From Zootoca vivipara (lineage: Eukaryota), in NCBI RefSeq assembly GCF_963506605.1, contig NC_083294.1:12090001-12154000 (forward strand): a DNA stretch of 64,000 nt, in the 5' to 3' direction. Below are positions 54,372-60,300 of this stretch, in pieces. The notes under the pieces are model-generated. The model was not told where the DNA came from, ran no database searches, and saw nothing but the letters and a program-made list of their open reading frames with translations. Both the position numbers and the translations under genes were made by a program. Every line of letters starts with the position of its first letter. Within the stretch, counting starts at the first letter, position 1.

Positions 54372-57300
54372 AGGGCAGTGGATGTCATTCAGCCACAGGC
54401 TTGGTTAAAGAAGAATGTTTTTGCCTGGTGCCTAAAGGTGTATAATGAAGGCACCAGATGAACCTCCCTGGGGAGAGCATTCCACAAATAGGGAGCCGCT
54501 GCCGAAAAGGCCCCTTCTTGTGTTGCCATCCTCTGGATCTCTCTTGGAGAAGGCATACAAAGAAGGGCCTCAGAAGATGATCTCGGGGTCCAAGTTGCTT
54601 CATATGGAAATACCTTCCTTGAGTTATTTTGCCTTCATCCAGCTCATTTCAACTACTCGAGGAGGATGCAAAGCAGGGCTGGTGAGGGTTGTGGCCTGGG
54701 AAGATTTTCCAGGGACCTGAATTAGAAGATGGCCTTCAAGACCCTGCCCAACTCATTCTGCAAAATTAAACAAGTGGATTTTGCAGAGATGATTAGGCCT
54801 AAGAACTTTAATCTGGGGAGCGATCTGCAAATCCATCAGATTAGTCAACGGATGCTAATTTTAACCAGTAGGGCAGAGAGATAAATACACCCGCTGGGTG
54901 CTGCTGCTTTGGTTCCAGTGTGTTGCTCTAGCAGAGGAGACTGTGCTAAAAGTTGCCTTTCCTTTCTGACAATCTGGAAGTTTTTGTTGTTGGTTAAACC
55001 ATAATGTCACATGTTTCCTTTTCTTCTCTTAACATCTCCTACACTGAGGCTTTAACAATATGCAAATATACTTAAATATAGTTGATGGGTGGATTTAAGA
55101 GGCATGTCAGCTCTGTCTATTTTCCACAATCCCAACCCCTCTATCTTGTAATCTTCATTCTAGTGAGAGTAATTGTTCATGTGTCCTTACTGACTCCAAA
55201 GACAAACATAGCTTTAATGAACAGACCATACAACCCGCTAGACTTGCTTGTGATGCTTCCTCCTCCCTTCCTGCGCAAAATACTCATAGTTCTGTATAGG
55301 ACACTCTAATCCCCCTGAGAGCTGGAAGGGACCACTGGCGGAGGAAGAGGAGGGCCCGCACTTAGCGCCACGACCCCGGGATGCGCGCCAGCCACACCCC
55401 CGCGTGCTCTCCACCAACACCACCCCAGTGCCAGAGCATGAAGCTCCGCCACTGGAAGGGACCCCACGGGTCATCTAGTCCAACCCCCTGCAATGCAGGA
55501 ATGGCTAATACCCCAGAGGACAGGATCACACTTCAAAATGACCTTAACAGATTAGACAACTGGGCCAAAGCAAACAAGATGAATTTTAACAAGGAGAAAT
55601 GTAAGGTACTACACTTGGGCAAAAAAAAAAAAAAATGAAAGGCACAAATACAGTATGGGTGACACCTGGCTTGAGAGCAGTACATGTGAAAAGGATCTAG
55701 GAGTCTTGGTAGACCACAAACTTGACATGAGTCAACAGTGTGATGCAGCAGCTAAAAAAGCCAATGCAATTCTGGGCTGCATCAATAGGAGTATAGTGTC
55801 TAGATCGAGGGAAGTAATAGTACCACTGTATTCTGCTCTGGTCAGACCTCACCTGGAGTACTGTGTCCAGTTCTGGGCACCACAGTTCAAGAAGGATACT
55901 GACAAGCTGGAACGTGTCCAGAAGAGGGCAACCAACATGGTCAAAGGCCTGGAAACGATGCCTTATGAGGAATGGCTTAGGGAGCTGGGTATGTTTAGCC
56001 TGGAGAAGAGAAGGTTAAGGGGTGATATGATAGCCATGTTCAAATATATAAAAGGATGTCTTATAGAGGAGGGTGAAATGTTGTTTTCTGCTGCTCCAGA
56101 GAAGCAGACACGGAGCAATGGATTCAAACTACAAGAAAGAGGATTCCATCTAAACATTAGGAAGAACTTCCTGACAGTAAGAGCTGTTTGACAGTGGAAC
56201 TTGCTGCCAAGGAGTGTGGTAGAGTCTCCTTCTTTGGAGGTCTTTAAGCAGAGGCTTGACAGGCATATGTCAAGAATGCTTTGATGGTGTTTCCTGCTTG
56301 GCAGGGGGTTGGACGCTATGATTCTATGATTCTATGAATTGTAGCTAAAGAATCCCCAACTGATGGTCGCCTGGCATTTGTTCAGAAATCTCCAATGAAG
56401 GAGAGTCCATCACCTTCTGAGAGAGTCCATTCCACTGCTCTCAAACAGCTCTTACTGTAGAAATGTCTTCCTTACGTTTAGTCGGAATCTTCTTTTTAAT
56501 CATTTGAATTTATGGGTTCAGATCCTGCCCTCTGGAGCAACAGAAAACAAGAGGCTCCATCTTCCATGTTGACAGCACTTCGGCCATTATATGTTAGGTT
56601 AGAGCCGATAACTAATGAGGCTCAGCTGTCGGACTTGGCTGATAGCCCGGAACTGGAAGGGAGGCTTGCTTTGATAAAGGAACTGGCTGGGAGGGGTGAG
56701 CAAATGGCAGAAATAACTCAAACCTCAGAAGAGAGTTTGTCCGAGTCTGTTCCTAGTTCTTTAAAGTTACAGGAACGTAGGAGGGGAGGGTTACAGGATA
56801 AGAGGAAATGGCAATTACAGAGAGAGAGGCAGAGGGCGTTGTTCGAGCGTAGGAATAAAAGGAGGTGGACTCACGCTAGAGAGCTAGATGAGTCATCATC
56901 TGATTAACTAGTGGTCTTGAGCAGGAAGTTGCAGTCTTTCTTGTGGTTACTTGCCTTTGTTTTGTCTATTTGGAATAAAACTCACTATTTACACACAGAC
57001 TGTGTGCTAGCCATTGCTGTTGCTTACAGCATGACTCATCTAGCTCTCTAGCGTGAGTCCACCTCCTTTTATTCCTACGCTCGAACAACGCCCTCTGCCT
57101 CTCTCTCTGTAATTGCCATTTCCTCTTATCCTGTAACCCTCCCCTCCTACGTTCCTGTAACTTTAAAGAACTAGGAACAGACTCGGACAAACTCTCTTCT
57201 GAGGTTTGAGTTATTTCTGCCATTTGCTCACCCCTCCCAGCCAGTTCCTTTATCAAAGCAAGCCTCCCTTCCAGTTCCGGGCTATCAGCCAAGTCCGACA

Positions 57301-60300
57301 GCTGAGCCTCATTAGTTATCGGCTCTAACCTAACATTATATTAGGGTTGCCATATTTCGGACACAATTCGAACACAAAAGTTGTTGAGGTTTTTGTGTGT
57401 GCAAAATCTCAAAAAACCAATACCGCCGTATTATGTTTGCCGGACGTATGGCAGCCCTACCTTATATTAGCTCACAGAATGCTCTTCTCCATGCTATGCA
57501 TACCCAGCTCCCTCAAGTCTTTCCCTCATCATAGAAAATTTATTTTTCCCCAGGCCAGATTTCTCAGGGTGCTGAATTCAAAGCCTATTAGATGCACTCC
57601 TATTTCTACGGTCGCAGGCCGCTATCATGATCAGATTTGCTTTCGTTAACATATTGCCCCTGTTTCTTTGTGTGCCTGGCAGTCTGTGTTCAGCCTTGGA
57701 GTCGCAGCAGGTGGTTTCGGCACCATGTTTTTCAACGACTACCTGGGCCGCAAGCTGAGCATCATGTTATCTGCTGTCCCATCTTTCATCGGATATCTTT
57801 TCATGACCAGCGCTCAAGAGACCTGGATGCTGCTGGTCGGCAGGCTGTTAACAGGATTTGCTGGGGGAGTGATTTCTGCTTCCATCCCAGTAAGTCAACA
57901 ATGTACTTTTCCTTGAGGTTCCATCTCATTCCAGCAAACTCAGATTGTGTACCATACGTTGAAAGCACTTTGAGGCCACTTTAAAACAGTCATGGCTTCC
58001 TCCCAAAGAATCCTGGGAAGTGTAGTTTGTTCAGGGTCCCAAGAGTCATTAGGAGACTCCTGTTCCCCTCCCAAAACCGCCATTCTGACTGGTTGACTGG
58101 TTGGTGTAACAACCAGTCCCTCTTCCCAGAAGACATCCTGGAATTGCCAAGCCCACATTGGGACTTGGAGGGGTCACAGAGATTTTCTTGCCTCTGCAGC
58201 TAGCTACTTTTGGGCATGTGCCCAAGAGCCTGGGTGGTAAAGTGATAATTGTCTTTGCCACACCCTCCCTTCATCTTCCATTTACTGACTGAGCCAATAT
58301 AATTTGGTCAAGCAATATTTAAAATAGGGAAGTTGGAGGTAGTGATGTCCTGAGTTGTAGTTCTTCCTTTCTGTCTCCTGAAAGGACCACAGGAATATTA
58401 GGGGAAGAACCATTGTGCAGTGGGAGAGCATCTGCCTTGCATATAGAAGGCCCCAGATTAAACCCCTGGCATCTTCAGGTGGGGCTGGGAATATCCCCAG
58501 TCTGAAACCTTGGAGAGCCACTGACAGAGTCAACAATATTGAACTAGAGGAGCAGTGAGTCTGACTCAGTAGAAGGCAGCTTCCCAAGTTCTCCCATTGA
58601 AACCAGACCATTATTCAGAACCATAAAGACTGGAAAGTTTAATTTAATTTTAGGGCAACAGCCGTAGCACAGTGGTAGAGCACCTGCCTTTTATGTGGAA
58701 GGTCCCTGTCATCTCCAGATAGGGCTGGGGAAATCTCCCTGCCCAAAATCTTGGAAAGTCACTGCCAATCAGTGTTGACAATAATGAACTGTTTGATTTT
58801 CATACTAACCTACCTTTGTAGGACCCTGAGTGCAACAGAGTTCTCTACACCTATGATTCCCAGCAACTGGAATTCAGAGGCATATTGCATCCGATAGTAT
58901 GTGGCAAGGGAGAAATGAAGTTCTCATTCAAATGTAAACTTCTAAAAAATGCAATTCCCAACACAATATTTGAACCAAAACACAGCCATTCTTCAAAATC
59001 CCCACACATCTGGATTTTGCGCTACAGTTTTCCAGCCACGCAGTGTCTCAAAAAATGTATGTGCTAAGGTAAAGTGCATTAATGTACCGTAGCAGTGAAA
59101 ATAACCTACAGAAGTGCAAAACTGCTCGGAAATAACACATAGAGTAGGAGACATTCGCACAAAAAATGTTGATCATCTTTTTCCGAGGACATGTTATTTC
59201 TTTTTTAAAAAATCGCAGGCTGATGTACAAACATGGATGACTGACGTTATGCTTGTTAAAACGAGAAACTGAGAGAAGCTAAAACTGATAGATTCATCCA
59301 TCCCTAATTGTGGCTACATCCATTAACTTAGGTCCATTAATTTCGCTGGGTCTACTCTGTGCAAAGCCTACTTGGAGTGGACACACACACACACACACAC
59401 ACACACCTGTTCTGCTGATTAAAATTCTGGCAACTTACCTTCCTTTTCTGTCCCTCCAGGTGTACATCTCTGAGATCTCTCACCCTGGAGTCCGGGGAAC
59501 TTTGGGATCCTGCCCTCAGATCATGGGCGTCTTGGGTGCCCTTTTCCTCTATGCTTTAGGCAAGTAATTGGATGTGAATTCTGGAGGAACAGATCAGCGT
59601 CAGACTATTGGCTTAAATGTAGGGCGGCTGGTGGTCCTTAGATCAGCGGTGTCTTCAGACAGGAGAACTGGACTTCAGAGATGGTTGGAATGCTTTGTTT
59701 GCTCTGGAAAAATTAAAGTATCCTCCTCCTCCCCCTCCCTTGCCAGAGTCTTGCATCCCCTCTTCCAATCCAGGGGCCTAGCCTTCTGGTTGGACAAGTA
59801 GGACCAGCTCAGGACCTCCCCAAATTGCAGGGTTTCAAACCCAGTGACTCCTTGTTTATTTGTTTGGAGAAACACTGGAAATTTCACAAGCTATTTATCT
59901 GATCTTTTGAAGTCATTCTGCGTTTAACCATTTCTCAGACCTTTGGCAGAAACACACATTGGTTATCAGAGCTTAGCCAATGTCTGGGGCAGGGGTCCCC
60001 AAACTTACCCTGCTTCGGGCCGGAGGGCGGGGGAGCGCATGTGAGCGTGCGCCCATATGCATGCTCACATGCTATTTCCGGTGCACTTCCAGGTTGGAGG
60101 AGCGCCAGAAATAGCTTGTGCGCCTGCACAAGGGCCTCCTCCGACCTGGAAGTGTGCCAGAAATGATACTTGCACATGCGCACAAGCTATTTCCAGTGCC
60201 TTTCGAACCTGGAAGTGGGCAGCTGCGCCACGCCGGTGAGAGCAGGTGGCTGTAGCAGGCGGCAGGGGTTGCCGGGGGCCGCATAAATGAGCCTCATGGG

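Follow-up and report, generated by a model that had tools for sequence, protein, structure and literature searches.

A fold-back LTR insertion in a lizard sugar-transporter intron: a likely by-product of self-primed reverse transcription in a Gypsy chromovirus

How can an insertion with a clean target site duplication (TSD) carry the same end of a long terminal repeat (LTR) on both sides? The question is raised by a 744-bp element in an intron of a sugar-transporter gene of the lizard Zootoca vivipara, located in a 64,000-nt stretch of contig NC_083294.1 (positions 12,090,001 to 12,154,000; C19 in the locus labels used below) that was analyzed as a whole and is called the window here. An initial annotation had read it as a complete LTR followed by an inverted copy of its own beginning, and had attributed it either to template-switched cDNA with two identical attachment ends, joined by an LTR integrase, or to a new family resembling miniature inverted-repeat transposable elements (MITEs) that parasitizes such integrases. 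In our view, with a probability of roughly 0.78, the element is mis-primed plus-strand strong-stop cDNA of a young Gypsy chromovirus, inserted by the integrase of that chromovirus via two U3 ends. Fold-backs of this kind are probably a recurrent by-product of self-primed reverse transcription.

The insertion and its parent family

The element lies between two copies of TTATA and its outer ends read TG...CA. When the coordinates were recomputed, the arms (56592-56896 and 57031-57335) again measured 305 nt each, were 100% complementary and stood 134 nt apart; a repeat finder gives 306 nt, since the flanking A and T pair as well. The flanks would also permit a 7-bp TSD (ATTATAT), a candidate that we rejected because a clean 5-bp TSD lies outside TG...CA in 10 of the 12 full-length parental LTR pairs checked; the same pairs uphold the boundaries of TTATA. 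Read from the left, the element follows its parent for 451 nt, through the LTR, a GC dinucleotide and the whole primer-binding site (PBS), and read from the right it does so for 305 nt. The two readings overlap by the 12 nt over which the PBS matches a site within the LTR, the predicted self-primer (Table 1).

At its outer junction the insertion is real and polymorphic, because contigs from two samples of one study (runs X17 and X18) pass straight from one flank into the other and contain the empty site with one TTATA. A contig of X1 has empty-site geometry and was judged by that geometry alone, while a contig of X15, which may be the sample behind the assembly, enters the arm from the right flank by 29 letters, just below the 31-letter bridging threshold. 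Runs X2-X14, in which only 0.06 of the flank words were present, were not included in this comparison.

The parental retrotransposon, whose existence the initial annotation had implied, could be located. The first 439 nt of the element have 42 genomic matches at about 100% (40 of 110 candidates scored), and most LTR matches are pairs 5,132 bp apart, corresponding to full-length elements of 5,569 bp with 437-bp LTRs that are 100% identical to the complete LTR in the window. These elements, which we call family A, carry a polypurine tract (PPT) ahead of the 3' LTR. Family A is a very young Gypsy chromovirus family. Its reference copy has a gag-like frame, followed by a frame for protease, reverse transcriptase (RT), RNase H and integrase (PR-RT-RH-IN) that ends in a Tf2-type SH3 domain and a chromodomain; Pfam matches lie at 92-196, 312-472, 535-666, 767-936, 1053-1113 and 1138-1187 of the reference protein, and no match to env was found in this copy.

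The layout of the 5' end is what connects the parent to the fold-back. The family-A PBS starts 2 nt past the LTR, lacks the TGG start and is complementary at 12 of 12 nt to nt 294-305 of its own LTR, against a working threshold of 10 nt or more beginning 0-5 nt behind the LTR. A second duplex is provided by U5 nt 420-432, which are perfectly complementary to leader nt 539-551. Within 600 nt of its start, the element has no other inverted match of at least 12 nt, and both of these are kept in all three examined copies of a subfamily that is ~93% identical to family A. Since 233 of 2,000 shuffled sequences also had some inverted match of at least 12 nt, the sequence makes the position of the two matches remarkable, not their mere existence. 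Self-complementarity of LTR and PBS is the arrangement given for Tf1/sushi self-priming in the available portions of bioRxiv 10.1101/2022.12.06.519325 and PMC6317226. Judged by its sequence layout and domains, the parent fits the testable characters of a Tf1/sushi chromovirus: gag, PR-RT-RH-IN, the SH3 domain, the chromodomain, a PBS matching the own LTR, the U5/leader duplex, the PPT and the 5-bp TSD are all alike. The fold-back itself differs in being no element but an integrated by-product of reverse transcription with two U3 ends, a product absent from the Tf1/sushi descriptions in those portions of the two sources.

Two further observations on family A may be recorded here. In three of its elements (L040, C6:21260607; L144, C10:~61919449; L146, C1:~99351991) the 5' LTR is missing its first 3-4 nt and a clean 5-bp TSD is absent, which suggests one-ended integration with the U3 end repaired by the host. 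At C7:1443400-1455400 a family-A element contains a nested family-B element (see below) that points the opposite way (L043/L044).

Recurrence at other loci and in a second family

The junction in the window occurs once in the genome, so the idea that this same junction recurs with other TSDs was not borne out; comparable fold-backs are nevertheless present at six other loci, each with its own TSD. Two belong to family A. A census of 70 exact U3-end matches resolved into 40 insertions, namely, 27 direct pairs, 3 inverted pairs and 10 singles (5 solo LTRs and 5 elements with one damaged end), and the 3 inverted pairs compare with a chance-neighbor expectation of about 0.0003. In both additional family-A fold-backs (L032 and L036) the switch runs from leader nt 551 to U5 nt 432, that is, it uses the second duplex. 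L032 is identical to the youngest family-A variant, and L036 has two leader substitutions in common with L046, L157 and L158; because they track different parent lineages, we regard them as separate events. No inverted U5-U5 pair was present among 67 family-A U5-end matches, nor any inverted pair among 26 U3 ends with one mismatch.

Family B, which is far larger than family A, has a 428-bp LTR and an 11-nt match between self-primer and PBS. It was searched with a pattern consisting of the PBS followed by reversed U3, a joint predicted beforehand from family A. The 15 matches comprised four fold-backs of the window design (L100, L102, L106 and L109) and 11 normal 5' ends; a longer and tighter pattern returned the same four and one normal end. 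Each of the four has a perfect 5-bp TSD, all different, and together they amount to 4 of 1,949 LTR-PBS junctions. They occur in subfamilies with different self-primer letters, three of them in subfamily B2. The three self-primer variants of the family covary with the PBS in 19 of the 20 normal 5' ends fetched, the 20th having no self-primer in range. No inverted pair was seen among the first 100 of 3,473 U3 ends of subfamily B1 or among the first 100 of 320 B2 ends; joints of other types may exist among the remaining family-B ends.

Between L102 and L106, 10 of 719 sites are different, and six of these differences form three mirror-symmetric pairs. An arm of L100 ends in CA-TC, the complement of the GA between PPT and LTR, an ending expected from run-off on a PPT-primed plus strand. 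The arms of L100 differ at four sites within 10 bp, and these match other B variants; later gene conversion is an alternative source of the differences. At the same locus (C10:66943289-66946314, positions 1077-2227) the fold-back is joined via CA-TC-C-TG to a further complete inverted LTR, with one GTTAC duplication around the whole, an arrangement suggesting that an unprocessed U3 end was ligated to a U5 end prior to integration.

The first 10 nt behind the family-B PBS are hypervariable (L097-L111, L123-L142), and some copies have in their place a stretch of their own U3 copied in reverse. In 9 of the 11 normal elements selected by the search pattern, 6-9 nt behind the PBS copy U3 in this way, compared with 0 of 19 controls, and in L111 the copied letters reproduce a private U3 variant. 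From their sequence, these short copies could be abortive versions of the slip that yields a fold-back.

Altogether, seven loci in two families carry fold-backs, five with PBS-type joints and two with U5/leader-type joints. Six of the seven stop at LTR nt 1 right against the TSD, and the seventh keeps only a 2-nt remnant of the PPT side. Older copies show age-related arm differences and arm deletions, two of the seven lacking a portion of an arm. In a third chromovirus family, C (L067-L077, L119-L122), PBS and LTR are complementary over 10 nt and the LTR contains tandem repeats; on this sequence evidence, the family is likely to be self-priming as well.

Route of formation and competing explanations

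In normal LTR cDNA, the position of both ends depends on a 5' terminus fixed by a primer and on copying that runs off it. A duplex with exact U3 ends on both sides would therefore require two PPT-primed plus strands that templated each other or themselves. We propose that the parent primes its own reverse transcription and that a plus strand started at the PPT would copy U3-R-U5, the GC and the retained primer and halt at nt 451. Its 3' end, being complementary to nt 294-305, could then anneal to that site on any plus strand in place of the normal second transfer, and RT would extend it until it ran off that template at the 5' end set by the PPT. The other strand would likewise begin at a PPT-defined U3 end, the simplest case being two strong-stop DNAs that prime each other; such reciprocal priming would need no truncated molecule and would leave a central 134-nt bubble to be resolved by host replication. 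Integrase would finally join both U3 ends with a 5-bp stagger, and the parent's own enzyme is indicated because the TSD of the fold-back has the same length as that of the parent. The U5/leader fold-backs may have followed the same route from a plus strand already beyond nt 551. Template-switched cDNA with two identical ends and an LTR integrase, one of the two origins initially considered, is thus retained, and the switch can now be placed where self-primer and PBS pair in a Tf1/sushi-type parent.

A suitable 3' end is known from Tf1, about 50% of whose particle cDNA retains a single-stranded PBS at the 3' end according to the available part of PMC11042837. That strong-stop DNA and not finished cDNA was the substrate is favored because none of the five PBS-type fold-backs is attached to an internal region, while two-LTR elements make up most of family A (27 of 40 insertions) and of B1 (46 of 54 insertions among the first 100 ends listed). 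The version with two strands is supported by the two PPT-side letters kept in L100 and by the four variant-matching sites at which its arms differ, together with the fact that intramolecular snap-back is not predicted.

Among the alternatives, we consider it unlikely that the U3 copy came from an RNA primer, annealed to the PBS and carrying U3 5' of it, which plus-strand synthesis then copied backwards. The U3 might have been supplied by a transcript whose start lay upstream of the usual one, or by the 3' U3-R copy at the RNA end. The bottom strand of the element indeed reads U3, self-primer and minus-strand cDNA, as such a primer would give, and the short U3 copies behind the family-B PBS fit start-site heterogeneity equally well. 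However, an RNA tail would extend into the host flank or into PPT/pol, whereas the fold-backs stop at LTR nt 1 or, in one case, 2 nt further, and the U5/leader joints would need a second cleavage. Still less probable is that finished full-length cDNA folded back at its 3' end, integrated in capped form and then lost its interior by recombination between LTRs. Finished Tf1 cDNA does have a single-stranded PBS (PMC11042837, in the part available), solo LTRs account for 5 of the 40 family-A insertions, and B2 consists mostly of unpaired ends. Against this, no capped full-length element was present among the 1,949 family-B junctions or the 40 family-A insertions, the copy in the window has 100% identity to the youngest variant, which has few solos, and joints that contain leader sequence are left unexplained.

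The MITE-like family suggested in the initial annotation, a non-autonomous element itself copied and reinserted, now appears extremely improbable. Long perfect terminal inverted repeats with a TSD would suit it, as would the joint held in common within each of two pairs, L032/L036 and L102/L106. Yet the joint in the window is single copy, and the other fold-backs derive from different parent variants and families: L032 and L036 follow different parent lineages, and the mirror-symmetric differences between L102 and L106 are expected from separate copying of different parents. Moreover, the fold-backs lack a PPT, and on both sides they terminate in U3 of an LTR retrotransposon and not in the ordinary terminal repeat of an element moved by a DNA transposase. 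Fold-back chimeras are a known sequencing artifact, and the inner joint is unbridged among the contig records listed, but we give very little credence to an assembly or library chimera, or to an inversion at an integrated LTR after insertion. The perfect TSD, the empty allele in other samples and seven loci with mechanistically exact joints speak against it, as do the age-related differences and deletions in the arms of older copies, and a chromosomal fold-back would duplicate host flank instead of stopping at LTR nt 1.

Several points weigh against self-primed strong-stop cDNA as the source. Because no contig among the records listed bridges the inner joint in the window, that joint rests on the assembly and on recurrence at other loci. 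A minimum-energy RNA fold finds the U5/leader duplex and misses that between self-primer and PBS, so that in a comparison with the three-duplex "pretzel" structure two duplexes are seen by sequence and the U5/leader one alone by energy. For free 451-nt strong-stop DNA, the predicted pair probability of self-primer and PBS is only about 0.002, as a local hairpin competes; snap-back within one molecule is therefore disfavored, and a chaperone or a partner strand must be assumed. The rates are far apart, 3 of 40 in family A and 4 of 1,949 in family B. In B2, unpaired ends make up 60 of the 80 listed insertions, and because they dominate there, the argument against recombination to solo LTRs is weak in this subfamily. 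A search for the U5/leader joint in family B gave two pattern matches, both ordinary leaders without a long inverted repeat, and the search for the fold-back joint in family C gave none, with a denominator that was not established. The 11 elements screened for short U3 copies were selected by the pattern and may share ancestry, and a start a few bases upstream would explain those copies equally well. Finally, the comparison covers self-complementary families alone (A, B and C).

Genomic setting, related systems and implications

The fold-back is intronic, lying upstream of a plus-strand exon that matches Sugar_tr; of four host exon translations compared with this Pfam family, two scored above the cut-off, one scored below it and one had no match. 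The initial annotation had labeled the site GLUT6 intron 2, a name that is provisional here. Directly right of the TSD (~57343-57460) is a short element with imperfect inverted ends, at which contigs of three runs skip 48 bases or branch, probably reflecting other copies of this small repeat. An older, diverged inverted piece (56390-56550) lies immediately left of the insertion site, and a LINE-like 3' fragment, which we take to be CR1-type, spans ~55450-56314, with 507 bp at 94.7% identity to an inverted copy at 2411-2917. A tandem array of partly palindromic units of about 144 bp occupies 48983-51022. ARAGORN found no tRNA genes in the window.

Table 1. Features of the fold-back insertion and its surroundings (window positions), and the two further family-A fold-backs
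Feature	Position	Strand	Remarks
TSD TTATA, left copy	56587..56591	.	Single TTATA at empty site in X17, X18
Complete 437-bp LTR (U3-R-U5), Gypsy chromovirus family A	56592..57028	+	100% identity to LTRs of full-length 5,569-bp elements
Predicted self-primer, LTR nt 294-305, end of left arm	56885..56896	+	Exact complement of PBS
AATAAA at LTR nt 383, candidate poly(A) signal	56974..56979	+	Host-gene strand
U5 segment, LTR nt 420-432	57011..57023	+	In parent pairs with leader nt 539-551; joint of two other family-A fold-backs
GC spacer, LTR end to PBS	57029..57030	+	Present after every parent 5' LTR examined
12-nt PBS = fold-back joint	57031..57042	+	Microhomology common to both readings
Inverted LTR nt 1-305 (U3 + self-primer)	57031..57335	-	Stops exactly at LTR nt 1, no PPT letters
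TSD TTATA, right copy	57336..57340	.	
Host sugar-transporter gene, next downstream exon	57683..57889	+	Pfam Sugar_tr, E=1e-12
Family-A fold-back 2 (L032)	C2:36025291-36026260		970 bp; TSD GATGC
Family-A fold-back 3 (L036)	C2:10841118-10841841		724 bp; TSD TAGGA; one arm deleted over nt 84-325

In the literature searched we found no prior description of fold-back LTRs joined at a self-primer, which is weak evidence of novelty, as most subscription papers were outside its coverage. Two studies by Atwood-Moore (2005 and 2006) reportedly sequenced Tf1 cDNA ends, and such products could be included there.

A related chemistry is found in integrase-independent insertion of Tf1 (PMC11042837), in which the reactive end is the same 3' single-stranded PBS. 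As described in the available text, the Tf1 tail anneals via Rad52 to PBS-like genomic sites and gives truncated or tandem direct copies, whereas here the PBS would anneal to the self-primer site, and the outcome is an inversion that has a TSD and both ends intact. The main text of that paper nowhere uses the word "inverted". Defective HIV-1 proviruses (PMC12657518 and PMC9278108) are likewise integrated fossils of failed plus-strand (second) transfer, including over-copying of the primer. In the accessible parts of these papers they take the form of deletions, tRNA inserts or asymmetric direct LTRs, with no U3-U3 fold-back described, and the tRNA primer of HIV-1 yields no self-complementary LTR site. 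A solo LTR resembles the fold-back in having one complete TG...CA LTR, a 5-bp TSD and no coding sequence. The fold-back adds the PBS and an inverted U3, so that its ends are U3/U3 and not U3/U5 and its U5 end is internal; unlike a solo LTR, which is made by recombination, it would have arisen before integration. DIRS elements, which have a tyrosine recombinase parent and no TSD, had been set aside in the initial annotation, rightly so, given the rve integrase of the parent and a 5-bp TSD confirmed by the empty site.

Mu killer of maize (PMC3440606, in the portion available) offers a parallel for possible consequences, as part of an active element is duplicated there in inverted orientation within a host transcription unit and a long hairpin RNA is predicted. 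Mu killer concerns a plant DNA transposon and its silencing has been shown, whereas the present case involves the promoter region of a retrotransposon in a vertebrate intron and would be a candidate silencer. The 305-bp perfect stem has a predicted folding energy of -672 kcal/mol, and it is plausible that the host pre-mRNA would form a 305-bp hairpin of the family's promoter region, a potential substrate of ADAR or source of endogenous small interfering RNA. An unlikely extension of this idea is a built-in self-limiting switch, in which the priming structure of such retrotransposons would regularly produce double-U3 fold-backs competent for integrase (3 of 40 insertions in the youngest family), and one of these in a transcribed intron would silence the whole family in trans as a "killer" allele segregating in the lizard.

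In summary, the fold-backs are genomic fossils of a reverse transcription intermediate. They show where the primer begins and ends in vertebrate sushi-type elements, for which complementarity is otherwise the basis for assuming self-priming, and they indicate that two U3 ends are acceptable to a Gypsy integrase. Fold-back LTRs give a sequence-only means of detecting self-priming in any genome, and they are open to misannotation as MITEs. For the host and the family, they represent a recurrent route to long perfect inverted repeats, which are unstable, and to hairpin RNA directed against an active family.

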